Positions 26,701-64,000 are shown, counted from the first letter of the stretch. The stretch: DNA of 64,000 nt from Laetmonice hystrix (GCA_965235115.1 OZ249436.1:31560001-31624000); one strand, 5' to 3'. Program-made: numbers and translations. Notes: a model not told the origin generated them from the sequence alone.

Positions 26701-29700
26701 CAGAACTTGGAAAACGATGTCCCTCTTTAACTATTTAAAATGCACACGACCTAATCTCTATAGCTTAGATGTGGAATTATTATCTATAGATCCCATAGAT
26801 CATTCAATGTATTTAAAGTTAAACCCTAATCTTACCACATATAAGAACGAATTGGTTGCCAAGATCTGTGTCAGCAGCACTATACCCGGTACATCTATGT
26901 CAGTTCATACAATGACAAGGGCGTGGGTTGCTGTGTTGACCTATTTTTTCATGTCACTAGGTCAGTGTTGTGTTGCTGGGCATCAGATGACTTGGTAATA
27001 CATGTACTCCTACTTTAATAGTAACTGCTGGTTGGTAGCAGTAAATACGTAGACCACTAACTAGTTACCACAAGATAATCACTCCAAATCTTCCTGAAAC
27101 GTTTATCAAAACAGTTTTATTGCAAGGAAACTTCTAACCAGATTTGCTGAGCACTATTTATCACCTTTTGGCAGAGATGACAGACCTATTATACTATCAA
27201 TACCTAACAGCAACACTGGGCCTCAATCATACTGTAATGGTAGTGAGAGGAGCCCCACTTACTGGGACTGAGTGGGAGGAGATAGAGGAAGCCTAACAAT
27301 GCCACAACAAGCTCAGTGTTCTCCCAAGGATAAAAAGCCATGCTCTGTTAGGCCAAAGGTCTCTAGAGATCCTATGACAGTAACCTCTCCGGGGCCCAGT
27401 TTTTAGTTCGTCATTTTATCAGTCTTGAGCCTGGAATTTTAACTTTTAAGACTGACATGTGTTAGGGTCTCTCATTGGTTGACTTCATTTTAAGGACCGT
27501 TCAGAAGCTCTAAAACCAGAGTTAAGTCTTAAGATTTCAATAGGCAAACATTTGACCAAATATTGCAGAGAAGATGAGTTACTAGGTGTGACTCAACTGA
27601 GACCTGTTATTTCAGATAGTTCGACTAGAACTTTACAAATACGTGGGGTACCCGGTTATAATGCAGCTAACCTCCTGGAGATGTGAGACTGAAGAGATCT
27701 GAGACTGTGACACCAGCTGTTTCAAGTGAAGTGGATTAGTTTCCCATTATTATGCATCAATGGGGAACGTGAAACTGTAGAGAACAGCTCGTCGTGAGGA
27801 CCAAGCTGGTCCATGACCTAGCCAAAGAATTCGGCTCTGTGCTCTGTACAGAGCCGAAGGTCGCTGTTCAGAATTTCCGAGCGTACCCGGACAAATCCTT
27901 TGTTTTCCATGAAAAGCCCTCATTTGTCTCTATGATATGTTGATGAAATATTGATAAATAAACTCAAACTAACTTATCTCTCATATCTGCAAGCTGGAAA
28001 AGCACGATGCGACACAATAAAGACAGTCACATCTCTCGAACCGAGAAATTTCAATGCTGGTTGACCGTCGGAGAGATGCATGCTGGGATATCAAAGGCAA
28101 CATGGCGGCCAGTAAAACGCCGTTAAACGGGTGATCTAGACATGAATTTGACGTTGTACTATTAGAAACACTGCTTCAGGACCCCACACACCTACTGTCG
28201 AGATAAATGGATGCCGGTGAGTTGATCAGTGCAAGCGGTGGTGGTCTGGCCTGGGTGTGGTCTGACCCGCCAGGAATTTAATTCAACTGCCTGTAAGCCT
28301 TGCTGGCTCGGCGCAAGGCTTAAGTAGTACTACGTAGGCTAGTCCATGACCGAGCTGGTCAAGGATGCTGAGGGGTGGGGTATACTGCGTATCATACCCG
28401 ATACACAGACTAATGCAAGCACTATCCGTCTTGAGAAAAATATGCTCTTTACCTGGGTCAAAATTTCCTATTATTCTCTGAAATTTACACTTTATACCTT
28501 CATTGAAAAAGCTTTGAACACAGTTCTTTTCTACGTTTACATAATACCAGGGCTTGTCTTTTGAGGCGCGCAATTGCCCTTGCGCACCATAGCGCACCTA
28601 AAATTGTTCCAAGGTGCACAAAAGACTGCGCGCCTAGTAGCCTACCTATAATATTAGTTAAAACTTGGCGCGCCTAGCCAACTTCCTCTGGAGTGACCCT
28701 ATTCTCTCAAGCAGAGGTCTGTCCAATTTTCTGACTGACTTATATGCTAGGTACCTGTAGCCTAAGGTAGGGCTGGTTCTTCTTGGCTTGTGCCTCTTAT
28801 GGTATAATCGGGAACTAATTACCGAGTACGGACGCACGTCAAAGTAAAAGACATAATGCTGGCTTACAATGAACCTTATTGGTGGACTGATTGGCAAGTA
28901 TTAAAACTTGTTTGTAGGTCATCAGAATAAAATGCTCGCCTAGAGGTTCAAATTGAAGTTTAGGCGAGTAATTATTTGCTCGCCTGACCTTTTCAAAGGA
29001 CAAGGCCTGTAACACTGCACTCTATATTATACACTACATTAGGCTATAGCCAGTCTAGGCCTAGGCCAGAAAAGGGCTTTAATAGATAAATAAATAATAG
29101 TAATAATAATATACATGTTACAGACCCTCCTGTCTTTTGAAAACCTGCAGTGTTTCGTTTTTCACTGTTCTAAAATATACAGGTATAGGAAGTTACTAGC
29201 ATTAGAATATGGGTCCACGTTCTGTGCGCCCACCATTGTAGTAGGGCAAACCGCCATGAATGCGCAGGCGCACATGTATAATTTGTTTGTCAACATAAAG
29301 TCAATAAAGGCCATGTGGGTTGAAGGGGTGGGGTGGAGCTTGATGAACTCTCAGAATTCCAGGGAGAACGATGGCTATATATATGGGCCATTTTATATAT
29401 ACTCAGTATGAACCCAGTTTTTCACTATCATTAATGCCCACAATAAAACCTTTTTTACAAATGATATGTAGTGGGGGAATAACTTCAATAAGATTCTAGA
29501 CTGTAGCACCGGATGACAGATGTTGTACAGTGTTTTGAGAACGACAATCCTCGAGTTGAGAAACTCAAACATACCGTGACGGGTGATGGTAATCATATTC
29601 AGAATACAATCGTGGCAAGTTTGATCTCAGCGGCGACCGTAGGGCCTACACTTCAGCTGTCTTGCCCACCTCAATCCATGGCAGGACCGCGGAGCTTGGG

Positions 29701-31425
29701 GCGGAGCGGGGAGCGCAAGCCTTAGGGTCAATGGCACGTGTTTTTGAAAGGAGGGCAGCACCCCCTTAATAGCTATGCGTTAGGCCCCTATGAGCGATAG
29801 ATCAAATGATCACTGCATATGCAATGGATACAAAATTAATGGTATGGGCTATGGCAATAATTCTTGGGATGTTGACTTATTGACATGGATCCCTAGAACA
29901 TAACTTTGAATCAGGGTTGGCAAAAACCCGGGTTTTAAGCTTATTGCCCAGCCCAGTGGGTTTTACCGGGTTTACCCGGGTTTTACGGGTAATACTGGGT
30001 TTTATGACAACACGCTTCCCCAGGTCCAGCTAAAGTGGTAAACATTTAAAATATTCATAATATTTTTCATTCAAAAAATACTCATGAGAATGTACTAAAT
30101 TGATACACACTGGAACCCGTGAGTCTGGTGTGATTGTATCATGGTAAAGAGTAGATAATCCCTGTCCGATACTCCAGACCGTCTGGCAACTCATGACTAC
30201 ACTGAATCAATACACTGGAATCAGTGAACCGGTAAAGAGAGGGGTGCACCTGTGCCTTCTAGCTCCTCTGTGTATACTGACTGCCTTGTCTAAACTCTAC
30301 ATGGTAGTCAGATTCTATAGGTAGGCCTCTGAATATAATGTCCTGCAACTGAGAAATTTTCAGTCAGTGTGTATCAGTACTTGACTGTATAGCTATTCAG
30401 GTACTGACCTACCAGTATGAAGCATAGAGACCCTGTTTGGCAATTTTTTTCCATTTTTTGAGAATTGTATATGATTTTGTTCTTATTACCCAGTATTGCC
30501 CACTTAGCTGATTTTAGGGATATTGCCCAGCCCGGGTTTTCCCGGACATTATTACCTGCCCGGGTATTGCCCGGCCAACCCTGCTTTGAATTCCACAAAA
30601 ACAGCCCTCCCGAATTGCTCCTTTAAAACAATAACGGCAACACAGCATATACTGATATAGGTTCACCCACATGGCTCAAATTAACTGGATTCGCATCGCA
30701 ATTTGCTCTATTGCGAATCAAATTAAGAGATGAGTCACAAAATATTGCCTAATACTGCTTCTACAAACCAAATAACTCAGTATTTATAGTGAATCAAAAT
30801 TTTTAAAGTATTTCGAGCCCTGACCTATTATGTAAATCTAACAGTAATACTCAGCTAACGAAGCACAAATTGCCACAAGGCCTTGCCACGCCCCCGCCCA
30901 CCCAGCTTGGGGCGGAACACGGCTGATCAGCGGGGGCCACGACCACCAGTCCCGTCGCCCGCCTCCCCCTGCCCTGGCCTTGGCTGTCAAACTGGTATCT
31001 ATCAGCCATCGACCTTGTCCCTCACTGTCAGTCACAGACAGGCACAGTGACAGAGTTGACTGACACAGTCGACACAGTCACCACAGACAAAGCGTAGCCG
31101 TATGCCAAATTCAATCGATTACTTCGACCTTGCCTCCATAAACATCATGACAAAGTGCTGAATCTGAGAAGTGGCAAGTCGGTCAGACCCGGTTTGGTTT
31201 CGAATGGTGTAAGTAACTGGGCCCCTCATCCTGACCGTCAGAGGCCCGAGACAGACCGCCCGAGACAGCGAACGTTCGCAGGTTCTCGCCACTTTTCTGC
31301 CGGCCACAGTCCTTCTCGGAAGTCAAAATCACAAAGTCAAAAACCGCGATGACTCACCTTCCCAAGTTCTGATCCGCTATCTGCTTCACTCGCAGTAAGT
31401 TCTTCTTCCAGTCTTTCTTTAACAT
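2794..31425 (-). CDS. ARHGAP44: BAR-domain Rho GTPase-activating protein, RICH family (ARHGAP17/ARHGAP44/SH3BP1-like), ~743 aa, 14 core coding exons
   Basis: Exons (minus): 31425-31358 (MLKKDWKKNLLRVKQIADQNLGR), 14522-14381 (AEKSEVLSEDQL...), 14196-14008, 13881-13696, 13477-13409 (DQLATDMYTFLSRE), 12520-12439, 11816-11689 (PVYGEPLEDHLK), 11482-11435 (GLFRVAGS, arginine finger), 11182-11034 (VAGALKLYLRELPEPL), 10929-10855, 10586-10470 (NKMSASNVAIVMGPNL), 10104-10025 (HADWFFPG), 4795-4564, 3460-2794. All GT-AG with matching phases. Pro-rich tail ends EETHL (class I PDZ-binding-like; recalled vertebrate RICH proteins end ESTAL). Probably co-ortholog of ARHGAP17/44, so the symbol is approximate. 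Confidence 0.93.
3621..3947. mobile_element. piggyBac-like MITE in last intron of the RhoGAP gene
   Basis: TTAA|CCCTTTCAGGGCGAACG ... CGTCGCCGGCATAGGG|TTAA: TTAA on both sides, CCC/GGG termini, internal direct repeat ACGATGCCTTGAGGCA. Confidence 0.75.
6883..7610 (-). CDS. Alternative exon of the RhoGAP gene (717-nt in-frame cassette 7610-6894, or alternative terminal exon ending at TGA 6883)
   Basis: Acceptor cctctttag|AT ATT GAC TTC in phase 1 after the WFFPG exon. Open frame of ~240 Ser/Pro-rich codons. Possible donor CAG|gtaccg at 6894/6893. Minus-strand AATAAA at 6211-6216. Confidence 0.75.
17729..17853. mobile_element. Short MITE of CAG(T/G)GGCGGATCC family
   Basis: Ends CAGTGGCGAATCC ... 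TATCTGCCACTG, flanked by GTTAT direct repeat (17724-17728, 17854-17858). Confidence 0.65.
18879..19290. mobile_element. MITE with CAGTGCCTCCCC TIR, copy 1
   Basis: TIR CAGTGCCTCCCC/GGGGAGGCACTG; 5-bp flanking duplication ATGGT; highly similar to 19438-19886. Confidence 0.8.
19438..19886. mobile_element. MITE with CAGTGCCTCCCC TIR, copy 2
   Basis: Ends CAGTGCATCCCC ... GGGGAGGCATTG; colinear with 18879-19290. Confidence 0.78.
21510..21700. mobile_element. PIF/Harbinger-like MITE with internal palindromic repeats
   Basis: Perfect 19-bp inverted repeat CAGGGGTCCGTTCCACTAA/TTAGTGGAACGGACCCCTG; GGGG/CCCC core flanked by TCA/TGA; about six copies of palindrome AAAGACGTCTTT inside. Confidence 0.7.
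24074..24135. repeat. (GAGT)n microsatellite
   Basis: Interrupted GTGAGTGAGTGA run. Confidence 0.85.
25290..25937. repeat. 39-bp minisatellite (~15 copies), intron 1 of RhoGAP gene
   Basis: Unit ACACCCTTGGCCTGACAGATCCTGAATACATCTCACCCC; explains the repetitive ORFs (GLTDPEYISPHTL)n. Confidence 0.92.
28548..29009. mobile_element. hAT-like MITE
   Basis: 17-bp imperfect TIR CAGGGCTTGTCTTTTGA / TCAAAGGACAAGGCCTG; flanks TAATAC / TAACAC. Confidence 0.6.
29912..30583. mobile_element. Non-autonomous hAT element
   Basis: TIR CAGGGTTGGC/GCCAACCCTG; perfect 8-bp TSD CTTTGAAT (29904-29911, 30584-30591); subterminal CCCGGG/TTGCCCAG repeats. Confidence 0.88.
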
Positions 31426-32086
31426 GATGCCGTAATCGTATCCTCTGCCATATGGGATAAATACTTGGATATTCTTGGTCTCACCTCCTTTCGGACATCA
31501 TTCCACCTCATCGACATCGCCCACAGACACACAGACACGGTAGAAGGAAGCACAGGCACTCCTCCTCCCGGAAACGGAACCCCTGAGTTTATGTTATATG
31601 CTGCCATCTGACGAGTACAGAAGGCACTATAGTGCAGATTTCCAACTCCGCCAGGGGGCTGACTCTCTCCCGGCTCATGGTCGCATTAGCCGGCGTTCAT
31701 ATGTAGGCCCCTATTATGACACGTCAGAGTTGTACCATAGGCCTAGATCAATGAGTTGTACTCAGCTGGCCTTTTAGTCGAGCACACACTACAGTGAGGG
31801 CTCCCCACATGTAGTGACTGGCCTTATACTCGAGCAAACACTACAGTGAGGGTTCTCAACATTGTACTGTCTGGCCTTATAGGCTACTCGAGCAAACACT
31901 ACAGTAAGGGCTCTCTACATTTATTGGCTAGCCTTAGACTGGAGCAAACACTACAGTGAGGGCTCCCTACATATATTGACTGGCTTCAGACTGCAGTAAA
32001 CACTATACAGTGAGGGCTGCCCACATGGACTGACTGGCCTTATGTAGACTCTATACGCGAGCAATCACTCAGTGAGAGCTCGCAAC

Positions 32087-32271
32087 CAGGCCGATCTAGG
32101 GTCAGGGGGTCCTAGGGGGGTCCAGCATAAAAAGGGCAAATCGAGGGGGGGTCCGTTGTAAAAACAAAAGGCATTTTGGTTATAAAAAAATTAATCTGGC
32201 AAATTTGAGGGGGGGGGGGATCCGGACGTCGCCATGCACCCCCCCCCCCCCCCCCCGCGGATCCGCCACTG
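32087..32271. mobile_element. GGCGGATCC-family MITE inserted in satellite
   Basis: Right end GCGGATCCGCCACTG, degenerate left end CAGGCCGATC; GCAAC on both flanks; satellite register resumes after it. Confidence 0.7.
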
Positions 32272-34053
32272 GCAACATGTACTGACCGGCTTTATACTCT
32301 AGCAAACACTACAGTGAAGGCTCCCTACATGTATTTAATGTCCTTGGGCTGGAGCAAACACTACAGTGAGGCCTGCTTCATGTATTGACTGGCCTTATAG
32401 GCCTACTCAAACAAAGACTGAAACAAACACTACAGTGAGGGCTCCCTACATGTACTGACTGGCCTTAATTATTCTCTAGCAAACATTACAGTGAGGGCTG
32501 CCCTAACTGGCCTTAGACTGGAGCAAACACTACGGTGATGGCTCCCTACATGTATTGAGTGGCTTCATACTCGAGCAAACACTGCAGTGAGGGCTCTCTA
32601 GATGTATTGACTGACCTAAGACTGGAGCAAACACTACAGTGAGGGCTACCCACATGGACCGACTGGCCTTATACTTGAGCAAACACTACAGTGAGGCCTG
32701 CTTCATGTATTGACTGGCCTTATACTCGAGCAAACACTACAGTGAGGCCTCCATACATATACTGAGTGGCGTCATACGTACTCATACGTACTCGAGCAAA
32801 CACTACAGTGAGGGCTCCCTACATGTACTGACTGGCCTTATTCTCTAGCAAATACTACAATGAGGGCTACCCTAACTGGCCTTAGACTGGAGCAAACACT
32901 ACAGTTAGGGCTCCTTACATGTATTGAGTGGCTTCATACTCGAGCAACACTACAGTGAGGGCTCTGTGCATGTATTAACTGGCCTTAGACTGGAGCAAAC
33001 ACTACAGTGAGGGCCCCTACATGTATTGACTGGCCTCAGACTGGAGGAAACACTACAGTGAGGGCTGCCCACATGGACTGACTGGCCTTATACTCGAGCA
33101 AACACTAGGGTGAGGGCTTCACACCTGTCCTGACGGCCTTCTACTCGAGCAGACACTGCAGTGAGGGCTCTCTACATGTATTGACTGGCATTGAGTTGGA
33201 GCAAACACTACAGTGAGAGCTCCCCCACATATGTAGTGACTGGCCTAATACTCGAGGAAAGACCACAGTGAGGGCTCTCTAGCACGTATTGCCTGCGCTT
33301 AGACTGAAGCAAACACTACAGTGAGGGCTTCCTACATGTATTGACTGGTGCTATATTCGAGCAAACACTACAGTGAGGGCTCCCCACAATGTACTGACTG
33401 GTGTTATACTCGAGGAAAGACTACAGTGAGGGCTGTCTACATGTATTGAGTCGCGTCATACTCGAGCAAACATTACAGAGAGGGCTCCCTACATGTATTG
33501 ACTACCCTTGGGCTGGGGCAAACACTATAGTGAGGACTCCCTACATGTAATGACTGGCCTTGGGCTGGATCAAACAATACAGGGAGGGCTCCCTACAATT
33601 GACTGGCCTTATACTCGAGCAGACACTACAGTGAGGGCTCCCTCCATGTAATGACTGGGTTGGGTTGGAGCAAACATGCAGTACAGTGAGGGATCTACAT
33701 GTATTGACTGGCGTCATACTCGAGGAAACACCACATACTCTGTGGCCTTATACTCGAGCAAACACAATGTCATGTACTGACTGGCCTCATACTCTAGCAA
33801 ACACTACAGTGAGAGATTCCCACTTGTACTGACTGGCCTTATAGTCTAGCAAACACTATAGCGAGGGCTCCTCACATGTACTGTCTGGCCTTATAACCGA
33901 GCAAACACACAGTGAGGGCTCTCTACATGTATTGGCTAGCCTTAGACTGGGGCAAAAACTAGAGTGAGGGCTCCCTACATGAATTGACTGGCCTAATTCT
34001 ACTCGAGCAAACACTACAGTGAGGGGTCCCCACTTGTATTGACTGGCCTTATA

Positions 34054-34496
34054 CACTGGCGGATCCGGAAGGGGGGGTTCAGGGGGTTCGACCCCCCCCC
34101 CCTAAAATTTTGCAGATACACACATTTTAACTTAACATTATAATTTAGAAGTATTTTTCTTTCAGTCGCAAGACAAAAACCACCTAAACAATTTTTGCCA
34201 CGCTACGCTCGGCATGATTTCATGCTATAGCCAAAGATGCTGTTGGACTTGAGGAGGCCCTTTTGGCCTTGGTCACATTGGTCATTGGACAGCTTATTTT
34301 GTGCTCCAAAATGCATCGGATTGCAACAAATTACACCTTGAATTTCAAATTTTTTCGGGGGGGGGGGGGGGGCATATGCCCCCGGACCCCCCTAGGAAGG
34401 CTTCGCGCCTTCGGTGCTCGTACAGTCACGTCTGTGTTACCCATAAACACGTTGACCCCCCCCCCCCCCTAACGGAAAAAGCTGGATCCGCCCCTA
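34054..34496. mobile_element. GGCGGATCC-family MITE inserted in satellite
   Basis: CACTGGCGGATCC ... GGATCCGCCCCTA; splits a satellite unit at GGCCTTATA|GTCTAGC with TTATA repeated near the right end. Confidence 0.75.
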
Positions 34497-35385
34497 GCTG
34501 TTATAGTCTAGCAAACACTACAGTGAGGGCTCTCATATAGAACTCTTTGTTTGCTACAAGGAACCCTCCCCTGTATAGAACCTTTTGGTTCCGTATGTGA
34601 AACCTAACTTTCCTAATGAACCCTTTTACCTCCATGTGGAACTCCGAAGTTTTCCAAAGAACCTCTATTTCTAAGAGTGTAGGGGCCTATACGAGGCCTA
34701 TATAGATTAGGCTATAGGCCTACTTTTATGTATAGGCCTAGGCCTACTTTGATGAACAAACGATTTTTTCCTGTGTTTGGTGGAAAGATTTAGGCCTAAT
34801 TGTTTTTATCTCCCCCAAAAGGACCCCCCCCCCCCCCATGCATGTGCTATGGTTGGTTCGTCCCTAAAGGTCCATGTCGAAATAGTCATTAGGCGATTGT
34901 CCTTGCAACGTCCATGCGATTTTACATAGCATAACCCTTCACTTGAGGCCTAGGTAGGCCTAGGCCTACTGTATTTTGATGGAAGTATTTCAAAAAGATC
35001 GCCTGGCCCTCGCCAGATAATTTATCTGGCGCCCGCCACATATTACCTTGGTCTATAACTTATCTGGCGCCCGCCAAATAAATTGGCCGCCAGTTAAACA
35101 GATATCAAGAATGGTGGACATTCAGTCCACATTTCCTGCCCATGAAGGCACTATACACATACAGTATACAGGCCTACATACATCTTGTCAAGTCACATGA
35201 CAAACAAAATGGAAGCGCCCATAATGGCCCAGTCTCGGTCACCCGACTACCGGCTTGTATCAAGACTGATAATGGCTCTGAAGTGGTCGGTAGGACATTC
35301 TATTTCAAAATACACGTAGCCTAGCTATTAATATTATCACTTGGACATCTCCGCTGGCATAGATCTACTTTGGAAGTAGCTGACA

Positions 35386-38300
35386 ATGTCAGGAAGATTG
35401 CGGCTATGTGCGTGTTTGTTGAACATATCCGAGGCCAGGAACAGGTCTGTAGTAGAGGCTGTGGCAGAGTCGGCTCTGAAGTCTACCTTGACAAGTTGGC
35501 CTACTGGCAGTGGTACACCCGGGGAAGGGCCGGTTGTGGTAGGTGGCATGCCCGCCTGCAGTGACGGAGATACAGGCGGAGGTGGCGAGACACAGAGGTC
35601 ATCTAACAATGGAGGTGAGTTCACGGCCCAAATACCTCACGGCCGCCATAATTATGGGGGGTTTGTAAAAATAATGCACTTTTTGTTGTAAAAAGGCCAC
35701 TTCTGGAAATTTGAGGGGGGGGGGGGGGTGGTCCAGACATCTGCGACCTGACCCCCCCCCCCCAAAAAAAAAAAAAAAAAAAAAACCCTTCACCACTGCA
35801 ATTTATAGTGTTACCATTCTGTATTTTAAAGGGTTAGAATGGCCGATGAAGAGTGCAGTACTGAATGTGTTCCAGGATTATGATTACAACCGGTCAGTCA
35901 TCACCATAATGGGCAAAGCAGAAAATATTGGTAAGCCTGATTATTTTTTCAACTATATATGTGCATAAAGTACAAGGTCAGGCGAAATTAAACCTGTGGT
36001 CTTTTCATTTAATGTGTCTATAGACCTTTCTCTGTACTGTAAGGTTTGCCACAGAAAACATTAAGAATCATTTAATATATTGGGCAAGGAGATATCCGTA
36101 AAACAGCCTGCAGTAGTCATCATCCTGAAGATTTCCAAATGATCACGAGTAAGCTTATATAACCTGGACAGCCCATATAGAGGTAATTTCAGCGCACATA
36201 TGTTCAAAGTAGATGCAAGAATTTGTTGATAACGGTCCAGCAGGGGCAGTTTATGAAATATGGTAAGTTTTCTTTTTTTGGGGGGGGGAGGGGGTCCCGA
36301 TCTGAAACTTTCTATAGTCTATTAAACTAAGATGCCGCCAAGCACTTGGTTATACTCGGATATCATACATGCTAAACATGTACTATTATTGTTCAAATGT
36401 TCTTGACTTGTCACCTGTCACATATTTGAGGGGTTTTTTTTTGGGGGGGGGGCAGCCTTTACGAGACCCAACCTAGCTACCTTGGAAAACACACAACCCA
36501 GAGTTCTGTACACTTTTTGCAGGAGGGTTAACCCACCGAACCGAATTCAAACCCTACTGCAGAGGGTTGTACAACAGTCATATTTACTATTTGCACTGAG
36601 GAGCCTCCCAACTGCGTGGTTTACATACCTTTCCTCTTGTTTTCTTTACTCCCACAGCTCAAAGTGTATTTGATGCCTGTCTCACTGCATATGACCTCAT
36701 CGACCTCCGTCAGCACGCAGGAGGTCATCCACGGCTCGGCGCGGTTGACCTTGTACCAATTCATCCACTGGCCGATGATGTGTCTTTGGAGGAGTGTGGC
36801 GCCATTGCTCATGGTAAGGGTGAACTTACTAATAAAAACTGGAATATACTCTGGAAAATGTCATGCACGCTTACATTGAAAATGGTGTCAAATTAATTTC
36901 TTTAAAACTACGAATAGTGTAAATAGTACGGAATAAAACAACTAAGAAAGCATTAACAGATCCAGGCCCCAAAAAAGGTACCGCCCAGGACGTTTGCCCA
37001 GTGTATGGACACACTTGAAAAGATGTATTTATTAATTTATGGTAGTGGCCAGGCCAGAGTGTTTCACCTCCTTGAAGAGACTGGTCACGGTTTTTATTTT
37101 CATACCAGAGACAAAATTTAAATTCTAATTCTCTCTAATTCTATTTCTAAACAACATGTGATTAGTATATCTCCAGTTGATCAGCTGAGTTCCTAATTCG
37201 TCCTCGTGTTTCCCTCCAATGTAATAACTTTTACAGATATTGCATCACGATTGGTTGCTGCTCTGCCGGGAGTGTCCATCTTTCTGTTTGGCAGTGCCGA
37301 CATCCCTCAGCAGCGTGATCTCGTGTGCCGGAGAAAAGCTGTTCGGTGGTATAACGGTGAACACGGGAGTAGTTTCACAGGCATAGAGTCAGACCTAGGG
37401 CCTCCACCCACAGGTCGCTATGGCCTCACTGGTAACTGATCTTCCTCAGTCTCTACTGCTAATTTGTGCCTCTTTCCCCTATTTGTTCTGTTTGGGGAAG
37501 AGGCACGGACTACACCCAGTAAAAAGACAACCTTTTTTTATTTGGACCCACAATTCTGGTCGTGAGTCGTGATTACCCAGAAACTGGACCCAGGGGGGTG
37601 CTGGAAATAACCAACTTCGTATACGCGCTGCAAATTGGGAGGGGGCTGTGGGCATTCCCCCCGTTGACCTTTAAAAAAATTTTGGGGGCAAATTGAGGAG
37701 GGTGCTTGAGAACCCCAAGCACCCCCCCCCCCCTGGGTACGCTACTGCATGTCATCGTTATTATTTATTAGTGTAAGAGTCTACTATGCTTCAGGGGCGG
37801 ATCCTGGATTTTGGTAAGGGGGAGCTTAGGGGAAGAATTTGCGGGGGAGGAGGGGGGGGTCAGCAGGTTCAATTCAGAGAGGTCTATGGGGGACCTCTCC
37901 CCGATCCACCTCTGTATTTGCATAGTTAATAAAAGCACATTAAATTAAGAGACGGAAAACGTTATAGTAATATGACATTTAAATGTTTTGATAGCTATTT
38001 CAGCATTGCATTACACCTACCCGGAACTTATTATTATGAAGCAGTACGAGGCATTGATCTGAGAGACACCTTGTGGTTGATGGGTGCATTAAACATCAGT
38101 TGTTTGTTAACCGTCTTTCGTACCTCACAAAGTAACAGACACAATTATGAATTTTGTAAATGACTGCTAAAACTCCAAGGGTAAAATTTTCTAGCTTTCA
38201 TATTTTTTCATCATTAACCTTCTCAAACTCGTATGTTTGCTGATGCCTGCATCGAGCTTATTTGCATACAAAAGTTGCTTCCCCCGGGTTATTTTGAAGA

Positions 38301-39698: not shown

Positions 39699-46451
<6,753 letters not shown>

Positions 46452-52508: not shown

Positions 52509-53465
52509 GGTAAGTGGTGAGTCTTTCAATGTACGTACGACTTACAATATCTAGGCCTACTCTTGTCGATACAATAGGGCCTACTGTGAAAGATGGTGTC
52601 CTTTCGATGCAGTCTGCGCGGAATGTGGAACTGGACTCTTTTTAAATGCCTTCTTATCACTGGACTATGGATGGAGCGCGTTGTGATGTTTACGTCATAG
52701 TACGTCATGGAAACCCCCGTCCATCCATGTGGCAGGCGATAGGCGCGCGATACCGTCACATTTCGACATCCGTAAAGTTGTATTATGATACATGTCTTAT
52801 CGACAGCACATTGGCTAATTAAGATCCCTGACACGAATCGAAAAAACTTCCTTCCTCTGTGGGTCTATTTTACATAGAATTTCGCATTTCTATCCCGCCA
52901 AACGGCTACTTTCTATATTAGGTCAGGCCTGAGAGCAAACTAACTCATAGGTTATCTTTAAACCAAACGTCAACTTTATCCATATGTAACCGTTCAGGCT
53001 CCGAGATATCCAACTGCAGGGTGTTATTTTGCCCCTTTGATAGGCCTGGGCCTAATAGATTTATCAGTATGGACCGAGACTTATATTTCGTTCTTACCTA
53101 GTACAATTGTTTAAGACATGGGTGTAGCCAGAGGGGCTAGAGGGGTTCGGATGAACCCCCCTTTTGCGGGGCACTATAAAATAAACGTCCAGCCAACTGT
53201 TCAAGCTGCTCCTCGTTTCGAGGCTGCACATGTAGGCTTATTAAAGGCAGTCATTAGATCAAAATCAACAAAAGTGACTTTTCCACAGGGTATCCACAGG
53301 GTATCCTTCTAGATAGTTTAGACACATTAAAAACTATCGGCACTACCGTAGAGACGTAGGCTTATAAGCAGCGATTTCCACGAGATTCAGAAAACTTTTT
53401 ACCGCTCCTTGCCTCAACGGGCCTGCACACTGAAGGCACGTGGCGTGTGTTTACTGACGTGACAC

Positions 53466-53703
53466 CTGGGGTGCGTTTCAATAAAGCCCAAAGATATCTT
53501 TGAAAACCTCGACGGAGTTATATACGTTCTGTATCTTTTAATATTGAAACGCACTCCTGCGGTGGAATGCGTTTCAATATCAAAAGATATCTTAGTCGAA
53601 GATGTCTTTTAGACTAGTGCAGTCTGGATGGGGAGAGAGCGAATGTTTCAATAAAAACCTCGCACCTGGCTCCAGCGAGGTTTCCAAAGATAATGCACCT
53701 GGG
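53466..53703. mobile_element. Harbinger-like MITE remnant
   Basis: GGGGTGCGTTTCAAT / ATTGAAACGCACTCC inverted repeats and AAAGATATCTTT palindromes resembling those in 21510-21700. Confidence 0.45.
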
Positions 53704-55683
53704 TATGGAATACCGGCGACTATGGTATTCAGGAAGTCCACAAAGTAGTCTTATCTGTACTTTGCAGTAAACGTCCTATCTGAACTTTGCCGAAGTTTCA
53801 TTTCAGCCAGAGGACGTGTCATTTTACCGACCCTCAAGGATACAATCCACTAGTCGGTTTTTTCTCTTCAAGATCGAGTTTAAAGGAGGACTCATGAGCT
53901 CCATGCTTTAAACCCGAAATTAGCAACCTTAGTAGTTTAAAGACCCCCCACCGCGACAGCCAGGCAAACGCCGTACCATATAGGCCTAACTAAAACTCGG
54001 TTGTTGTCGTTATTGTTGTTGGTCGTTGTTTTGCGTGGGGTTTAAGTTATCACGGGGGATGTACCAAGAACGTAAAGTATGCGATCTAAAGGACGGATCC
54101 TGCAAGGTTTTAACGTATAGGCCTATAATGACATATGTATGATGTCTATAACTGAACTGGAAGGGCGAGAAAATCCCGAGAGTATGTTCATGAACAAAAA
54201 TATATTTTATTTCAATATCACAGGAAAGTCAAAGTCGTCGCACTGTACGCTTACTATCCACACTGAGTTGTTTGACCACCCTATGACGTCACAGGCCTGC
54301 ATCACGTGTTTTCGTCCCAGCCAATCCTAGCCCCATGTCCCTGAATGCGACAACCACCAACCGACAAGTACATGTACCACTACACTATACCAAAGTAACC
54401 CACATTTGAGAAGACGAAATCTACGAAGACAAATAATTATGATCTAAGAAAGAAAATTATGTTTTAAGTTTCTATCAAAATGTGTTGTCTGTGATTTCTC
54501 GCTGTTCTAAGCTGTTACTATTACAGGTTAGTAATTAGAGACCTCTGGGGATTAGTCTACATTGCGCAAGGGCCTGTTAGGGGCCTACTCTGTTCTCATT
54601 TTACAGAAACAGGCTAGTGGACTTGTCAAAGGATAATAATCTGGAGCAGCCAAAAGGGAATACCCACGGGGGTGTACTAGGCCTTGTATACAAAATGGTC
54701 TATGCAATATATATTCGACTGCTTTCTAATGTTTGGCAGGTTTACAGAAGAAGATGATATCAATCGATATATAGAGACCTATGCCCAAGATGGCCCGTAA
54801 TTTGGTCCTATTACATGTACTTCTGATATAAGGGGTGCGGATTAGATGGGGTCCAGGTGTGTTTTTTGTTGTTGCCAGAAACAGTGCATGCTACCTTTAC
54901 AGACCAGTTGTAGCAGATGAGTTATGCTGAGCTTATTGGTTTGACTAACAAAAGATGTAGTATTAAACGAGTATTCCACCTATATTCACGCTTGGTAAAA
55001 CCAAAAGCAATGGAGAGGAAAAAACAGTTTCCTAGCCGAGCGTGACTGAAAAACTGGTTCGCATACTAACTTGTTTTTGTTGGACACAGAGCTGAGCCGT
55101 ATGTCTCGGAAACTACAATCTGCCCTGACTGGAGAAAGTAGCGCAGATATTTCTTTGGTTTGCAGCGAAATCTAAACGCTAGGTGGCGGTAGCCCTCGAT
55201 ATAGGATCTACCTGTTAAGTCGATAACCTGACGCCTGGTGGCGCTGGAAGCTTCAATGTGTTGGCCATATTGTGTCGACAGGCTCTGTTCTCTAAGTGCC
55301 AATATAGATCAACTTGCTTGAACATGGTTTTGGGCCCTGTTATTAAAATATCGGTTTCACTTAGAATGTAGGTCAGGACACATAATATTCAGTTCTTTTC
55401 GTTGTTGTTTTACTTCTGGCTTCATTTATACTAATTATACTCATCCGAGTTTTTCCTGAATTGCCTAGCTGTATATTAGAGGCTTAGGCCCATGTTATGA
55501 AGAATATCTCCTCTGATAGCTCCTTCAATATCCGTTTTCACAAAGATAGATTCATTGAAATCCGCGGCTACTTAGCCCTGCGGAAATTAGGTCTACACGT
55601 TAAAACTCGACCGTTTCTCATTCTGTCCTAGCTCTGCAGTTTCAAAGGATAACGCCAATAGCATTGCCGAAATATTGTAAATG

Positions 55684-58600
55684 TTATTCATCATATCGAT
55701 AATCAGACAGACTAAAGTCTTGCCCTTGGGAAGAAATACCCAGATTGTCACTGAAAGTAGAGTATAGTGTCCCACCACCGTCTCCTTCAACACCGTTCGA
55801 CGTCAGTCCAAGCTCTGGAGAACGAGCATCGTCTGAATTAATTTCATAGACGGGTTCAATTTCCGAAGAGTGACCTGTCTCTTGTAGGGTTTTCTCAAAG
55901 AGTCGCAATCTTGAGTTGATGAGATCCTTGTATTCGTCCGAGGATAGGTAGTCTCTGATTTTTTGGAGCCCCGTCTGCAGACGATCGCGGGAGTCACTCG
56001 TTTCTGACGTCTTGATAGGGTGTAGACCCTAAAACAGTGATTATAAAACAACCCACGGTAAGCACAGGGGTAGAGTAAGTACCAGGTATATCAGGTCGTC
56101 AACTGTATGCATAGGCCTAATGTGAGAAAGCTAGTCAGTACTTTTCTGGCGGAGAATTAACCCTGAGTATCCGTCACTTATATGCAAAGGGGCCTTTTCC
56201 TTAATTTAAATGTCCATATTCCGCGTTTTCCCGCGTAAATTACGTAAACTGGACTTTTACCAAAGTTATTGTCTCACAATGTTGTAGATGCACCTATACT
56301 TTGATTCACCTCTGCCGAGTAAGAATTGAAGTACACATGCACTCATAATTGTCAATCTGTGACTCCGATCACGCTTAAAATGACGACTAATTCACATTTA
56401 TAAGCAGTTATACATGTACTTATATTTCCGGTCATGTATTTTGCTGATATAACCTGTTTTCAATCAGAACCGTCACCTTTGGGTCACATGTAGGAAACAC
56501 GACCACGTACCCTAAGATAGAAAGTTACCGTAGGCCAACACAATGGTTTACACATAAGTAAAGAATGTAGCGTTTTAAGTGACCAGGGACCCGTTTCAGT
56601 GACGTTATACGAGCTCTTATATAAGACCACTTCGCTCGGAAATGAGAAGAAACCTGTATGCTGTGTTCCCTGTTCTGTTTGTGAGGCACCGATGCTTACG
56701 AAAACTATCCCCAGCTCCTTTTAGATATTTTTAAAAAAAGCATCGTAACTTTCACGCGTTTATTAATAGTGCCCCACAGGCTCCCGCCACCAGACATTCA
56801 GTGTGTATGTGTATATCTAGACTAAGAGCGTTTAGTTTGGAAATGACACTTCTGTCTTCTATAACGTCAACTTAAACTCTATGTTTACTTCCGGTTTGAC
56901 GAGTTTTACCGGATTGAACGGCAGTGGAAAATACCCAGCTCTTGGATCGAGGGTTGTGATTGGTGGGTGGTGAAGTTTGAGTTATGGGAGTGGAGAGTTA
57001 GAAGAACCAAACCAGATTTCCATGACAAAGGGTCACAGAGTGCTCCAGCCCTACTACCCTATCACCGTTATTATTGTCAATCAACCTTGGTGTCAGTCAG
57101 ACTTGTTCCAGTTGTGATAGCAACATTTCCGTTTCGTCCTGCGGCTTCGGGGTTTGCACCGGTTTGCAATATTTCTTATCAGAATTGTAAAGAAAACTCA
57201 TTAGTTTAGCCTTAGGCGCTGCCTTGGAATTATCTTAAATATACATGTATACTGGTCACTAGACTTAACTATAATTATAAGAAAACTGTAATTTTGCGGC
57301 CTTTTTAAAAGTATTGTTCATAAACTTTTAGACACAACCCATTATGATGCACATTTAGACCTGTGATTTTTCTGTTCACACTCACGGCATACAGTAAGCC
57401 ACAGATTATATGAGTTCGGCAACTTACACGTAGAGCCTTTAGGGATAGTTCATCTTCTTCATATTCTCGCTTTCGGCCGTAAGACTGGACGTGGTCAGGC
57501 AGTTCCTGAGTGCCATGTAGGACCAGGGTGACACTCTTCACCCGGCCAACGTTCTCCTCCCCGCTTTCCTAAATTAATTAATAAATTAAATAATTAACAT
57601 AACATACCGCCGGTTAATGGGTGAGGATTTCACGCCACGGATATCAACACCAATTCAGACAACCCGGGGAGGAGGGGCTGATCAACACAAAAATAATATT
57701 CAGCGGACGGTGCAAAAAAAAAACTCATGACGTTTATAATCGGCAAGAAAAATTACTCTTGCTGGGTTTGGTAGCCTGATGAAAAAATAATTTCACAATA
57801 CACCATCGCCAGGGCTATAAAATCAATGTTATAATGATCCACATGAAGACCTCTAGCGGCGTGTGGACTGTTTCTCGTACCCCGTCATCAGTGATGTTAA
57901 CAAGCCAGTGGCCGGCCGGGTCTTCACCCCACGTGTGGACAGACATAAACGGCCAGTTCACGAAACCGGCCGATGACGTATCACCCGGTCTCTTCGTCAG
58001 GAGGGTCGTCCGGGTACCTGACAACGACAGCGCACACTTTATAAACATATATTATACCTTTTCTGGATAGCGTTCGGCAATCTGGATTTTGGAAACATGT
58101 AGGCTATTTAAACATAAGAAAGTAAGGCATTTTTTATGAAAGAGCAGGCTATAGGCTAGATGTGAGCTTACTTGGAACAGTGGCGGATCCAATGGGAAAG
58201 CATTAATTAGGAGGCTAAAAAAATATTTTTTTCCAATCCTGGATCCGCTCCTATGTATATGGCCTATAGCCTATAGGCCCAAATTAGAGAAACTGTCCTA
58301 CATGCCAGAATCTAAGGGTTATTCGGAACTTCTGAACTAGACCACTAGGGGTCACCTCTAGTCAACCCTACAAACGGTGTTAGGCTATTAGGCCTATAAT
58401 ACCTAGTTGTATAGCCTATAGGCCTACTTTCTGTAGCCTATAGATCTATCATAGGTCTATACCCTTGAACATTCCAAACATTGACACAACTTTTATCATA
58501 CTGTAAATAAAAGCGATCCTACCACTCGGTGACGTCAGTTCGATCTGTAGCGCCCCCCTGCGGCTATATTCCATATTGACGGCGAGCTGCACGTGCTCCA

Positions 58601-61600
58601 AATACTTCACGGCATTTGATTGACCAGCACAGCCTGAAGTTTTGATTTTAAAAATGACACTTCCCCCACTCCGCATACGTCTGAAAAACATTATTTTAAT
58701 GAAGATTAAATTTTTAATTATCCAGATGCTAATTAAGCCTAATATGACCTACTTATAAGAGATGTAGGCTATAAGGTGTGGTCAGCGTCTCGGTTAAAAT
58801 GTGCTTGGTTGTTATGTTAGACCTTGCTCGCAGCCACCTAGTGTCATATTTGTAAACTACGACCATTCTGTGTCAACTGTCATTGCATAGGAAGTTTTCA
58901 GGGCACTTCCCTCCTGGACATTTGCCCCCCTAGGACATCTGCCCCCAGACATTCGCCCCCGGACATTAGCCCCCGTAGGACTTTTGCCGTCTAGGACATC
59001 TGCCCCCCTCCCCGACACCCCCCCCCCCCTCCGGACATTAAGCCCCGTAGGATAGGGTTAGGGTTAGGTTTGGGTCCTAGGGGGACAGAAGTAGATCTAC
59101 TACCCGTAGGACAGGGTTAGAGTTAGGGTTAGGGTTAGGGTTATGTTAGGGTACTAAGGGGGCAGAAGTAGGTCTACTACGGGGGTTATATGTCCGGGGG
59201 GGTGGGGATGTCTGGGGTCACTGGCACAGCGACAGAGGTTGATGGGGGTGGGGTACAGAAAAAGTAATTATGTCAAATGCGAGGCGAGCAAAGCGAGCAA
59301 AGCGAGCACCGCAAGTGTGAAGCGAAAGCATTTAAGCTGCATTTTTCTGTTTTATGGTGAATTTATGTGGCGGGCGGTCAGGGCTGCACCCGGGAAGACA
59401 TGGACGCAATGGAAGAAACTGCGCCCAGGAAGACATGGATGCAATGGAAGAGGCTGTGCCCAGGAAGACATGGACGCATCGAAAGAGGCTGTGCCCAGGA
59501 AGACATGGACGCAATGAAAGAGGCTGTGCCCAGGAAGACATGGACGCAATGGAAGAGACTGTGCCCAGGAAGACATGGACGCATCGAAAGAGGCTGTGCC
59601 CAGGAAGACATGGATGCAATGGAAGAGGCTGTGCCCAGGAAGACATGGACGCAATGGAAGAGACTGTGCCCAGGAAGACATGGATGCAATGAAAAAGGCT
59701 GTGCCCAGGAAGACATGGACGCATCGAAAGAGGCTGTGCCCAGGAAGACATGGATGCAATGGAAGAGGCTGTGCCCAGGAAGACATGGACGCAATGGAAG
59801 AGACTGTGCCCAGGAAGACATGGATGCAATGAAAAAGGCTGTGCCCAGGAAGACATGGATGCAATGAAAAAGGCTGTGCCCAGGAAGACATGGACGCAAT
59901 GCCAGAGACTGTGCCCAGGAAGACATGGACGCAATGCCAGAGACTGTGCCCAGGAAGACATGGACGCAATGCCAGAGACTGTGCCCAGGAAGACATGGAC
60001 GCAATGCCAGAGACTGTGCCCAGGAAGACAGTCTGGTTATTAAAAGCCATGCTTCTACAGCTTTAAAACATATGAACCTTTGTGTGAGGCAAGTTTGATA
60101 ACGATTCGTAGCGCGGTGTATGGAAAAAGTGGCGGTGGTGCCGGTGGCGGCTTTCCCCTCTCGCCAGGGCGTCCCCACTGCCAAACCGGGCCTCGCTTTT
60201 TCAGATTCCCGACTTTTTTTCAACAACAAAATTATTTTTTTTCGTTTTCCTCACTTTTCACTTCCTGAATTTTGTGCGTTTTGTTGAAAGAAATATGTTT
60301 TCATTTTCCTGACTGCTTATGCAAAAAGTAAGGAAAACGGAAGTGAAAAGTCGAGAAAACGGAAGTGAATAGTCCGGAAAACGAATGTAAAAAGTCGGAA
60401 AATATAAAAATAATTTTTTACATGCATGTCCTTTCCCAGCCACCGTGCCACCGTGCCACATCACACATTATTTTCAACGGATATCATGCCGTACCCCGCT
60501 GCAGCCAAAATTGATCATGGCTGCATCCGTCACCTAGCACGGGCCAAAGCCACCAAAAGTCAACTGGCAAATGTTTTCGGGGGCATTCTACTAGTAGGAA
60601 CAATAGAGAAAGGTCCACTTGATTAGTAAAGTGATGCGGTTTGGGGCGAGTCTAAATAAAAATTCTCAACGCCCGATGAGGGACTCGGACCCGCGACCCT
60701 CAGATTAAAAGTATGATGCTCTACAGACTGAGCTAACAGGGCGCTCCGAAACGATTTGTCGTCAACAATATTTTTTCTACCACTTTATTCTTTATAATGA
60801 TTTGACTAAGAATCATCTATTTCAATAACTTTTACATTTCTCTTTCCAAGTCATAAGACTGGATTCTGTGAACTGACCTAGCTCACCCCCCACCCTCCAC
60901 CCCCACCCCCACCCCCACCCCCACACACACCATCGACGTAGAGTACTCTAGGTCTATGCACACACTAAGCATACTGTATTCAACAATCATACACAACAAC
61001 AAGAAACTTTACCTGGGAAGGGCTGGGTTCTTCTTAGAGTCGACTTCACAGACAAACTTGGGGGGCACGGACTTGAACTTCTTGGGGTCGGCGCTGTTGA
61101 CGAGTGAAGCCGCGTTTAGAAGTCCAAAGCCGAATCGGGAATTTACATAAAAACCAGCCCCGTTTTTCTGTGGGTCAAATAACAATTGTCAGTAGGCCTA
61201 CAGACTAACATAAACTACATAACATCCCTTCAGGTTCGAATGGCATGTTACCTTTAAAAAGTAGGCTATTACCAGAATGACGTCGTATAAGATATATGTG
61301 TGAAATTGTTAAAGATCGGCCCACGTTCCCTGCAGAAAATTGGAATAATTCTGTCGAGGTATGCCCAATGGAATATGGTTACCTTCCAGCCCTTTGACAG
61401 TAAGAGGGGTTTAATCTCAGATGTCCACGCGATAAGATGCTTACCTTCCAGCCCTTTGACAGTAAGAGGGGTTTAATCTCAGATGTCCACGCGGAATATG
61501 CTTACCTTCCAGCCCTTTGACAGTAAGAGGGGTTTAATCTCAGATGTCCACGCGATAAGATGCTTACCTTCCAGCCCTTTGACAGTAAGAGGGGTTTAAT

Positions 61601-63497
61601 CTCAGATGTTCACGCGGAATATGCTTACCTTCCAGCCCTTTGACAGTAAGAGGGGTTTAATCTCAGATGTCCACGCGGAATATGCTTACCTTCCAGCCCT
61701 TTGACAGTAAGAGGGGTTTAATCTCAGATGTCCACGCGATAAGATGCTTACCTTCCAGCCCTTTGACAGTAAGAGGGGTTTAATCTCAGATGTCCACGCG
61801 ATAAGATGCTGCACATCTCTCCATGTCAGACTGGGACTGAAATACACAGCAAGTATCTAACTATCGACATCGCGGCAGGCATCACTCAAGGTATCTCAGC
61901 TTTATTTTGTTTGGAACATTGAGGGGAAAAGCGAGGATTTTCAAAGGCGAAGGTCGCGTTTCTGCCAAATATTAGCAGGAAAGGATGCAGGCGTGACATA
62001 GATATGATCGTCCGTTGCTATATAATACTAGCACTTACTTTGTTTCCAGAACGAGGGCGAGAATTCCTACCGCCAGGGGCGCTGATGCTGAAGTGCCCGT
62101 ATGTGACATGGTGCATTTATCATGGAGGTCTGTGCTGATCTAGATGCATTTCAAAACAATATCATTGCAATTTACTATAGATATTCATTGAAAATAAAGC
62201 CGGGGAAATTTTAAGGACATGATTAAAACTCTATTTATCAATTTAAACCATCTACGGAATTGGAAACGAAAGCAATGAGCTAATCTGTTTTACACCTCAT
62301 CAGCTCCTTTCGTTCTCAGGACAGAACTCACGGGTCCCTACGACTTTCCAATTTCGTTTCACATTCTCTTTTAATCCCTGGCAGCGATTACTTTTTACCT
62401 TCGTTTCCTACAATTGTCATAGCGTCACCTTCCCAGTGGGACTACTCAATTATTCCGATTCTCTTGAGGTGGTTTACTCTTACGCCGGCAGACTCGTTTT
62501 CTATCACTTTAAAAATATTGCCGGATTGCGTTACTTGCGTTTTTTCTTTCTGCAATTATTACCACCTCTAGCTCAGCATACGGTCTTGTCCATTTTATTG
62601 TATTGTGACCATTTCACGTACTATTTTCTGATCACTGATGGTACCGGAAGAGTAGGTGGTTGCCATGGTGGAGGCACATTTCTCGGCGTACCATGGCGAC
62701 TGGCAGTGCTGGGAGGCCGAGGACACAGATATGGTATAGATGGAGCCAGTGTAACCGTCACAGTTACAGTTGTCGTCGTGCATGCCACCGTTTCCAGACG
62801 CCCACACGTACAACACCCCTTTACCTCCGCGGCCCTTTGAAGTAAAAGATAATCCCTTGGATTAGAAATACTTGTAAACGACCTCAGGATGGGCTACTGT
62901 TCCAAGGTTATGAGGGTTATTTATTTAGAATTGACATGGTGTAAGGCTACTAAGGTGACGTCCATGGTTGAAGACAGACTTTTAAAGCTTCTAATGTTAT
63001 AAAATACAACGGACTAATTGGTCATATTTTATAGGCACCTAAAATTTATTTTATGGCGGTTGTTTGAAAAAGTCTGGAAGAATATTCTGTGCCAGATTTA
63101 GGCCTGCAGTTTGTTTTGCCACAGTTCAAAACTTTTACGAAAAATTAGCAAACTTTTCTAAAAAGCCCTGCAGTTTCAAAACTTTTACGAAAAGTTAGCA
63201 AACCTTTTTTAAAAGGCCTGCAATTTCTCTTACCATAGTTCAAAACGTTTACGGGAACTTAGCAAACCTTTCTGAAACATTAAAAGAACCGAAAAAGAAC
63301 TGATGGAAGTGTTTGAAGGCCTACCTTTGTGATACCTTCTTGGAATGCTTTGGAAGCGAGCTGGCCGGGACCCTCCACTGTCTTACCGTCATCATTGGGG
63401 CCCCAGGAGGCGCTAAAGATGTCCACCACACCGAGGCCGTGCGACAGCGCATGCGCCTCAAGGCGGTCGGTCACCCGGCCGTCCAACATCCGGATTC
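55684..63497 (-). CDS. PCSK1: Prohormone/neuroendocrine convertase 1 (PC1/3)-like subtilisin protease, 3' part (5' exons beyond window)
   Basis: Exons 63497-63325 ([23 protein letters not shown]), 62834-62622 (WASGNGG oxyanion Asn, CNCDGYT), 62139-62039 (HTGTSASAP catalytic Ser), 61836-61752 ([15 protein letters not shown]), 61167-61013 ([24 protein letters not shown]1-like), 58680-58523 and 58017-57881 (P domain, [11 protein letters not shown]), 57568-57428, probable last exon 56028-55684. Phases consistent; last exon less certain. Confidence 0.9.
58178..58253. mobile_element. Minimal GGCGGATCC-family MITE
   Basis: CAGTGGCGGATCC ... GGATCCGCTCCTA, 76 bp. Confidence 0.55.
58910..59215. repeat. 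Repeat element with GGACATTTGCCCCC subrepeats and short TTAGGG tracts
   Basis: GGACAT(T/C)TGCCCCC x4-5; interrupted (TTAGGG)n at ~59054-59070 and ~59113-59151. Confidence 0.55.
59383..60030. repeat. 35-bp minisatellite (~18 copies) in PCSK1 intron
   Basis: Unit GTGCCCAGGAAGACATGGACGCAATGGAAGAGGCT; explains the overlapping repetitive ORFs. Confidence 0.93.
60670..60742 (-). tRNA. tRNA-Lys(TTT)-derived sequence, probably pseudogene
   Basis: GCCCTGTTAGCTCAGTCTGTAGAGCATCATACTTTTAATCTGAGGGTCGCGGGTCCGAGTCCCTCATCGGGCG resembles eukaryotic tRNA-Lys(UUU), but D-loop GG is TG, T-loop TTC is TCC, and the anticodon and acceptor stems are mispaired. Confidence 0.75.
61379..61810. repeat. 61/62-bp tandem repeat (7 units) built from the 3' end of a PCSK1 exon plus its splice donor
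   Basis: Minus-strand unit GCATCTTATCGCGTGGACATCTGAGATTAAACCCCTCTTACTGTCAAAGGGCTGGAAG|gtaa; donor G at 61751, 61689, 61628, 61567, 61505, 61444, 61382. Confidence 0.93.
63105..63280. repeat. Three diverged ~50-bp repeats in PCSK1 intron
   Basis: TTCAAAACTTTTACGAAAA(A/G)TTAGCAAAC repeated three times. Confidence 0.7.
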
Positions 63498-64000
63498 CTG
63501 ACAAAATGTAGTGGCAACTGATTAAACAAAACCAGGCAATCCTTGTAACAGTTCCATCTTCTTTATTTCAGGCACGTCTATATTCCATGACGACAGCTCC
63601 GGAGTAGCCTATAACCCAGTCTTCACCTATTTCGAACGCGACGCCAAACGTCTATATTCAAAGACTTCATTACTGACAAAGATCAATTACATAGAAGGTT
63701 CGGTAATTAGGGATTCGACTTAATTCAAGTTTTTTGGGGCACCTACTATACTAGTGGTAGGTTTATTAGACGGAGAAAAACAGAAATGTATTAGGCCTAC
63801 TATAGTAGGCCTATATAAATTATAAAACGTAGGCCAAACAGGAGGCCTATAGCCACGTATCCTAATGCCCTATAGTGCCTATCTAAATCTCTGGCCTACA
63901 GAAACGTTGTTTTCAACGTTTATTATAGACTCTAACCTTCTTTTAAAAACTTATTTTTATTACGCTCAAAATGTATCCTTGAGGTGTGTGTGCCTGCGAA

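Follow-up and report, generated by a model that had tools for sequence, protein, structure and literature searches.

Six-base insertions at plain TA make a recurrent palindrome in Laetmonice hystrix, a probable excision scar of a cut-and-paste transposon

Why one eight-base palindrome, TAGGCCTA, recurs throughout a stretch of the Laetmonice hystrix genome, and what process made its copies, is the question raised by this locus. The window (the whole stretch of DNA analysed, 64 kb) contains, by Pfam, a BAR-RhoGAP gene, a formiminotransferase-domain gene, two olfactomedin copies, and a proprotein convertase gene. In a protein comparison, the best match reached 74%, and named matches 42-54%. The initial annotation, made from sequence alone, had counted about 24 copies of the palindrome against about one expected, and the excess is confirmed: there are 26 exact copies against a shuffle mean of 0.73, and 0 of 100 shuffles reach 26. 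Of the 22 positions it gave, 21 are right (34792 should be 34791), and four copies had been overlooked (22532, 22573, and the chained 34739 and 34961). With 12 tandem arrays masked, 23 copies remain (0.83-0.94 expected), and in the proposed enrichment check of TA-NNNN-TA words, run on the window, TAGGCCTA ranks first among 136. GGCC flanked by the 15 other palindromic dinucleotide pairs occurs 0-3 times each, compared to 23 times with the TA flank, which ties the excess to the word with TA on both sides. Next to the TA, on its outer side, the base varies (G15, A13, C10, T8; n = 46), and the duplication is TA only. One-mismatch forms are also in excess (33 vs 19.4 expected), but three of four control words show a similar excess, which makes this weak evidence. 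The motifs tend to lie close together; 14 neighbouring pairs are at most 60 bases apart (2.4 by chance), and rebuilt TAGGCCTA targets had a neighbouring TA in 9 of 23 cases, compared to 696 of 4027 other TAs. A 67-base stretch at 52516-52582, with one TAGGCCTA and one TAGGGCCTA, is missing from a related repeat at 46310-46998.

Comparison of sister copies reveals the ancestral state of some sites, and it shows that TAGGCCTA is the product of a six-base insertion at plain TA (Table 1). Six bases were gained at plain TA in four such comparisons (32398, 47443, 47844, and 50616), and five bases at 31880. The initial annotation had read a plain ancestral TA at 32398, 47844, and 50616; this agrees with the sister units of the 52-bp satellite, the sister units of the 38-bp array, and olfactomedin paralog A, respectively. 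The TAGGCTA variant it had noticed in the satellite at 31880 is likewise a +5 insertion, and 47443 is an additional case from the 38-bp array. The satellite unit with the 32398 scar also bears a further 12-base insert. The inserted GGCC is constant across unrelated flanks, and is thus independent of them. No other GGCC lies within 60 bases of 47844 and 50616 or within about 48 of 39164, although one does lie within 7 bases at three of the six sites examined. Because the flanks differ at every site and GGCC is absent around 47844 and 50616, there is no local template. Five units of the 38-bp array (47368-48639) have +5 inserts near a TGTAC core, some of which can be read as TA-NNN-TA; these are probably due to slippage. 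At 53357-53362, in a high-copy repeat, the window reads TAGGCTTA, and a minority of contigs are without 6 or 4 bases, giving TA or TATA; this is possibly a decayed scar that spread with the repeat.

The olfactomedin gene is duplicated at 39319-42047 (copy A) and 50054-52299 (copy B), and the copies are 90-98% alike. Copy A is scar-free, and a 25-bp C-rich array lies between its matching parts. The peptide GKVYTY of copy A reads GKV*AYTY in copy B, where the Pfam OLF domain is split in two at 50616 and resumes beyond the stop. Because the insert interrupts an open OLF frame with a stop, the direction of change is insertion, and the scar is the derived state.

Table 1. Scars and related TA-bounded words in the window (7-mers, TAGGCTA/TAGCCTA; GnCn, numbers of G and C between the TAs).
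Position	Strand	Feature	Basis or remark
4138..57249		20 TACATGTA outside tandem arrays, second enriched TA-bounded palindrome	word counts
22532..22580		two TAGGCCTA (22532, 22573) overlooked in the initial annotation	word count
28335..31745		7-mers 28335, 28638, 28758, 29040; TAGGCCTA 29056, 31738; longer G/C forms 29640, 29781, 31704	ancestral state not seen
31880..31886	+	TAGGCTA (+5) in another 52-bp satellite unit	same unit position as 32398
32398..32405		TAGGCCTA at TA of a 52-bp satellite unit	TA without insert in sister units
34680..34968		cluster upstream of formiminotransferase-domain gene: G4C2 34680; TAGGCTA 34708; TAGGCCTA 34715, 34733+34739 (chained), 34791, 34955+34961 (chained)	word counts, Pfam for gene
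39164..39165		plain TA in TATATA; other allele +6, giving TAGGCCTA	contig alignment
43735..47221		TAGGCCTA 43735, 44179, 46195; 7-mers 46070, 46794, 47187, 47215; G2C3 46265, 46279	ancestral state not seen
47443..47450		second TAGGCCTA (+6), diverged edge unit of 38-bp array	sister units
47844..47851		TAGGCCTA (+6) in a unit of 38-bp array	sister units
50616..50623		TAGGCCTA in coding exon of olfactomedin copy B	in-frame stop on minus strand
52552..56119		TAGGCCTA 52552, 53981, 54118, 56112; G3C2 52575; G4C2 54578	
58100..58440		cluster inside proprotein-convertase gene: 7-mers 58100, 58152, 58267, 58381, 58412, 58434; TAGGCCTA 58389, 58419	word counts, Pfam for gene
58267..58273	+	TAGCCTA; plain TA (5 added bases missing) in one X2 contig	one contig, one run; beside a deletion of about 31 bases
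61193..63813		TAGGCCTA 61193, 63792, 63806; 7-mers 61262, 63605	

Differences between alleles were sought in contigs of three runs (X1, X2, and X3) of one sample, aligned to 34101-41200 and 48701-59300 (17.7 kb in all); 12 of 24 indels are listed for the first stretch and 12 of 88 for the second. The scar at 39163 segregates. TAGGCC is inserted behind this position in X1 and X3 contigs, while the window and X2 have plain TA, and the X2 contig is identical to the window over 39076-39372 (0 differences). The X1 contig with the insert has 15 other letters over 1380 bases and full depth, as a second allele would. A GGCCTA gain at TA between haplotypes, which the initial annotation had proposed to look for, is therefore found at this site, and it speaks against an assembly artefact. 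The +5 scar at 58267 probably segregates as well. Among the 13 TAGGCCTA in the compared stretches, 10 are ungapped in at least one contig, two are unbridged by the listed pieces, and one is 50616, whose insert is missing from the contigs of all three runs. One X2 contig without this insert has 1 other letter compared to copy B and 47 compared to copy A, which suggests that only one copy-B allele carries the scar; because the contigs merge copies A and B, heterozygosity at 50616 is something we infer. Over 34894-35745, the contigs of X1 and X3 contain 7 gap letters without an assigned position, and the other six-base indel among those listed, at 37523, is unrelated to the scar. The indels listed for the two stretches in this sample include no allele in which a scar site is occupied by a complete element. 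A steady-state estimate that assumes neutrality puts the rate at about one scar to 325 point mutations and predicts 0.5 heterozygous cases in 17.7 kb, compared to one clear and one probable case seen.

We consider it likely (probability about 0.77) that TAGGCCTA is the end-joining scar of a TA-targeting Tc1/mariner/pogo-type cut-and-paste transposon with G-run ends. Such an element would insert at TA and duplicate it. At excision, the transposase would cut two bases inside each end and leave TA-GG 3' overhangs on both flanks, and germline end joining would fill both overhangs to give TA-GG-CC-TA. Loss of one base before joining would give TAGGCTA or TAGCCTA, an end cut deeper in the G run and kept would give G3C2 and G4C2, and reuse of the scar's TA would give chains such as TAGGCCTAGGCCTA. 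Because every hop would leave a scar, scars can far outnumber elements. The changes observed have the form of footprints: a single TA became TA-(2 to 4 bases)-TA (four +6, one +5, and one allele pair), the inner bases do not depend on the flanks, and the length variants keep parts of both ends (G2C2, G2C1/G1C2, G3C2, and G4C2). From the process put forward in the initial annotation, the GGCCTA insertion at plain TA, its direction, and its segregation stand as observations, while its cause is one that we infer. Chained copies and the satellite cases, which have a template nearby, could be due to slippage.

Footprints of Tc1/mariner elements consist of the first or last 2-4 element bases between TAs, and excision leaves 3' overhangs (PMC6943129). 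In Tc1, these are non-complementary 2-base 3' overhangs (PMC4490562), and the footprint is taCATGta (as cited in PMC3520976). The scar described here works like a Tc1 footprint and is a candidate member of that class. Excision footprints in worm germ cells (PMC4490562) and rice (PMC4423477) are varied and often have deleted flanks, in contrast to the uniform scar found here, yet a word count makes only uniform products visible. A uniform inherited scar at such density requires a germline that uses end joining freely; in C. elegans, end-joining repair is mainly somatic (PMC13148408). Fot-like pogo elements with G-run ends exist, and one has a TA duplication (PMC7386202). The G-run-ended rows listed there, most of which have TAA/TAAA duplications, come from a red alga, an amoeba, oomycetes, and fungi; no animal is among them, and no TIR starting GGCC is among the pogo-table rows listed (PMC7386202, supplement 3). 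A literature search, with most subscription papers outside its scope, found no title on TAGGCCTA as a natural footprint.

The spectrum of variants indicates which end products are kept. Observed and expected counts in the window are 23/0.83 for G2C2, 24/5.2 for G2C1+G1C2 (TAGGCTA/TAGCCTA), 4/0.46 for G3C2, and 4/0.13 for G4C2. There is no excess in the window of G2C0 (TAGGTA, 20/27), G1C1 (TAGCTA, 7/8), G3C0 (8/7.5), or G3C1 (0/1.4), and other palindromes of like composition are not enriched. Runs of at least 7 G/C are about 15-fold enriched in the window; with poly-G runs this frequent, G3C2 and G4C2 may be slippage products. Metagenome contigs were scanned for three close TAGGCCTA copies, which gave 118 loci from an estimated 3200 or so such stretches; 117 loci were read, 113 were non-redundant, and 77 had at least 500 bases after masking of the seed and tandem repeats. 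None of these loci is similar to the window, and several have animal-type genes. Their counts are 149/3.0 (G2C2), 103/25 (G2C1+G1C2), 17/1.3 (G3C2), 4/0.3 (G4C2), 107/90 (G2C0), and 65/52.8 (G1C1). Because the motif was the criterion for picking the loci, the magnitude of the excess is biased, and the point is the matching spectrum. Comparison of repeat copies within these loci yields 149 gap rows; a change from TA to TAGGCCTA accounts for four of the 19 six-base rows (3 distinct sites), and a change from TA to TAGGGCCTA for one seven-base row. Some other TA-bounded words were also observed. Short TA-GGG...CCC-TA stretches at 56016-56031 and 58346-58370 (12 and 21 inner bases, ends partly complementary) could be longer footprints or chance. 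TACCGGTA is mildly enriched in the window (4 vs 0.5) and in the metagenome loci (13 vs 2.7), as is TACCGTA/TACGGTA in the window (11 vs 4.3), and the two may represent a third family of scars, derived from CC(G) ends. TACAGTA/TACTGTA is not enriched (16 vs 11.4 expected in the window).

The same counts bear on a possible variant of the footprint reading, in which a GGC-starting element is cut three bases in, in the style of Sleeping Beauty; it is counted within the probability given above and makes up about one third of it. Pairing of its overhangs via the terminal GC would produce TAGGCCTA, and pairing around a mismatch in the centre would produce TAGGCTA/TAGCCTA. This explains the two commonest forms equally well, along with the missing excess of TAGGTA and TAGCTA (20/27 and 7/8), and the Sleeping Beauty footprint has the identical 7-base form (PMC6943129). 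However, G4C2 is left unexplained (4/0.13 in the window, 4/0.3 in the other contigs), the full 3+3 product TAGGCGCCTA has 0 copies in the window and 0 in the metagenome contigs, and the pogo-table rows listed in PMC7386202 include no GGCC-starting TIR. If GG ends each lost a single base independently, TAGCTA would also be in no more than slight excess, about 4 in the window and about 10 in the other contigs (65/52.8 seen).

The donor predicted by the initial annotation, a TA-flanked TIR element starting GG and ending CC with a transposase, was not found within the 64-kb window. A scan for TA-GG...CC-TA inverted repeats gave 8 weak pairs (14-15 of 20 matches), none a credible element, and pairwise comparison of 354 TAGG starts in the window gave paralogs and tandem units only. 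None of the longest 25 of 240 inverted pairs in the window is TA-GG-ended, and Pfam identified a transposase in 0 of 138 window ORFs of at least 75 aa, a threshold that shorter or spliced pieces would escape. In the 113 metagenome loci, the end scan gave low-complexity pairs only, and 0 transposases were identified in 56 of 168 ORFs, a set that excludes the ORFs of three bacterial-looking loci and the shortest ORFs. Two other transposon classes were considered as the source. Hairpin-type footprints (hAT, CACTA) add bases that are an inverted copy of flanking DNA, which does not fit added bases that stay constant while flanks vary. PIF/Harbinger elements target TWA and duplicate three bases (TAA/TTA); here the base outside TA is mixed and TA alone is duplicated, in disagreement with this.

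Several other mobile-element-like structures are present in the window. A G-rich CAG...CTG miniature element at 32086-32271, inside the 52-bp satellite, is flanked by a 5-base direct repeat, and we take it to be hAT-like. Related CAG(G/T)GGCGGATC ends are at 12744, 34054-34496, 37792, 42281, 43652, and 58178, and contig depth is very high at 34101-34574, in the region of these ends. At 44228-45178, a foldback element (44259-45015, 137-base arms 92% alike) is nested in a second element, presumably Harbinger-like, that has GGCC-starting 31-base arms after TAA and a related end at about 34850-34945. A high-copy repeat at 58860-59210 has inverted GGACA-rich arms and internal AGGGTT units.

A second TA-bounded palindrome, TACATGTA, has 33 copies in the window, 13 of them within normal-length units of the 52-bp satellite; outside arrays there are 20 copies vs about 1.5-1.7 expected. 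The initial annotation had suggested that it may be the analogous scar of CA...TG-ended elements. The excess outside the satellite (20 vs 1.7) is real, but the array, paralog, and listed allele comparisons in this window include no case of its insertion at plain TA. The two families differ in placement. Only one of 47 GG-family motifs lies in the first 20 kb (1 of 25 with clusters collapsed, p 0.0006), compared to an even spread of TACATGTA (7 of 20). This part of the window contains exons of the RhoGAP gene, and its CpG o/e is 0.54 vs 0.72 elsewhere. Over 16 bins, density against CpG o/e gives rho 0.52 (p 0.04) for the GG family and rho -0.25 for TACATGTA. That GG scars shun CpG-poor DNA is a lead only, from one window, a post hoc test, and autocorrelated bins.

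Such placement, a donor found neither in the window nor in the metagenome loci, and the high rate required (about one scar per 325 point mutations) would also fit a donor-free host process in which TA breaks receive a constant GGCC tag, for instance through a domesticated transposase or a fixed-template end-joining polymerase. We regard this as unlikely; the duplicated TA and the family of variants are what excision predicts, and we know of no host process that adds such a tag. It is somewhat less probable still that slippage, local template switching, and copying inside repeats made most copies with no dedicated process. The chained TAGGCCTAGGCCTA does equal a tandem duplication of six bases, the two satellite cases have GGCC 5-7 bases upstream, and at 53357 the form present in the window, TAGGCTTA, is shared by most contigs of the high-copy repeat, so that words of this kind can be spread by repeats. 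However, this would not explain insertion where GGCC is absent within 60 bases (47844 and 50616) or 48 bases (39164), the unrelated flanks, or the lack of enrichment of palindromes of like make-up.

Selection for protein binding, which has been put forward for TACATGTA in Phytophthora, is very improbable as the origin of TAGGCCTA. Copies do cluster upstream of a gene and in CpG-richer DNA, and PMC3520976 favours a binding site over a footprint for TACATGTA. Yet TAGGCCTA is present in satellite units and as a stop-making exon insert, and it arises by one 6-base step; selection may keep copies but does not make them. A sequencing, library, or assembly artefact has hardly any chance of being the cause even though the three runs are of one sample, perhaps the assembled one, with library type unrecorded, because 10 of 13 TAGGCCTA in the compared stretches are ungapped in at least one contig, the contig bearing the 39163 insert resembles an allele, with full depth and 15 other letters, forms with one mismatch are slightly more frequent than expected (33/19.4), and unrelated contigs have the identical spectrum.

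Excision events of the past usually leave nothing to see, and estimates of transposition rates are therefore based on the copies that survive. With a fixed scar that can be counted, the places and frequency of germline departures would be on direct record, and population sequence alone would suffice to test the rate of excision and the choice of target. With excision as the source, we tentatively suggest that hops of a GG-ended element and germline end joining together form a standing mutational process in this animal and other invertebrates, in which roughly one 6-base insertion is fixed for every few hundred point mutations. If so, the process is still segregating and shuns CpG-poor (likely methylated) gene bodies, unlike TACATGTA, and the scars mark where two element families, which differ in chromatin preference, landed in the germline. 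The scar has stop codons on both strands and can thus knock out genes, which makes it a source of in-frame stop mutations such as the one in the broken olfactomedin copy B. It also calls for caution in taking a palindrome enriched near genes for a transcription-factor site. Excision footprints as a mechanism are textbook knowledge; new are the end sequence, the abundance, and the inheritance of this scar, and from this window the stop-making exon insert, the segregating +6 allele, the probable segregating +5, and the matching spectrum in unrelated contigs.

Some of these features are shared with known systems. Excision footprints in rice species were likewise inferred from natural allele and genome comparison (PMC4423477), but they are varied, with 8 of 94 perfect, usually deletions or filler, and no single dominant word. 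Fot-like pogo elements belong to the IS630-Tc1-mariner group and have GGGG, GGGT, or GGGC ends, and one Entamoeba element has a TA duplication (PMC7386202); the rows listed are non-animal with mostly TAA/TAAA duplications and come with no footprint data. Sleeping Beauty (TACAGTA/TACTGTA; PMC6943129) and Passer (0-4 bp; PMC9976928) share TA-bounded retention of terminal bases, and the Sleeping Beauty footprint is a reverse-complement 7-mer pair, like TAGGCTA/TAGCCTA here; unlike here, both have CAG-type ends and were studied in cell assays at engineered sites. The Tc1 footprint taCATGta of C. elegans (PMC3520976, PMC4490562) shares TA plus two bases per end plus TA, an 8-base palindrome, and a net gain of six, with CA/TG inside compared to GG/CC here. 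It is called rare there, and worm end joining is mainly somatic (PMC13148408), whereas the scar described here is inherited, abundant, and segregating.
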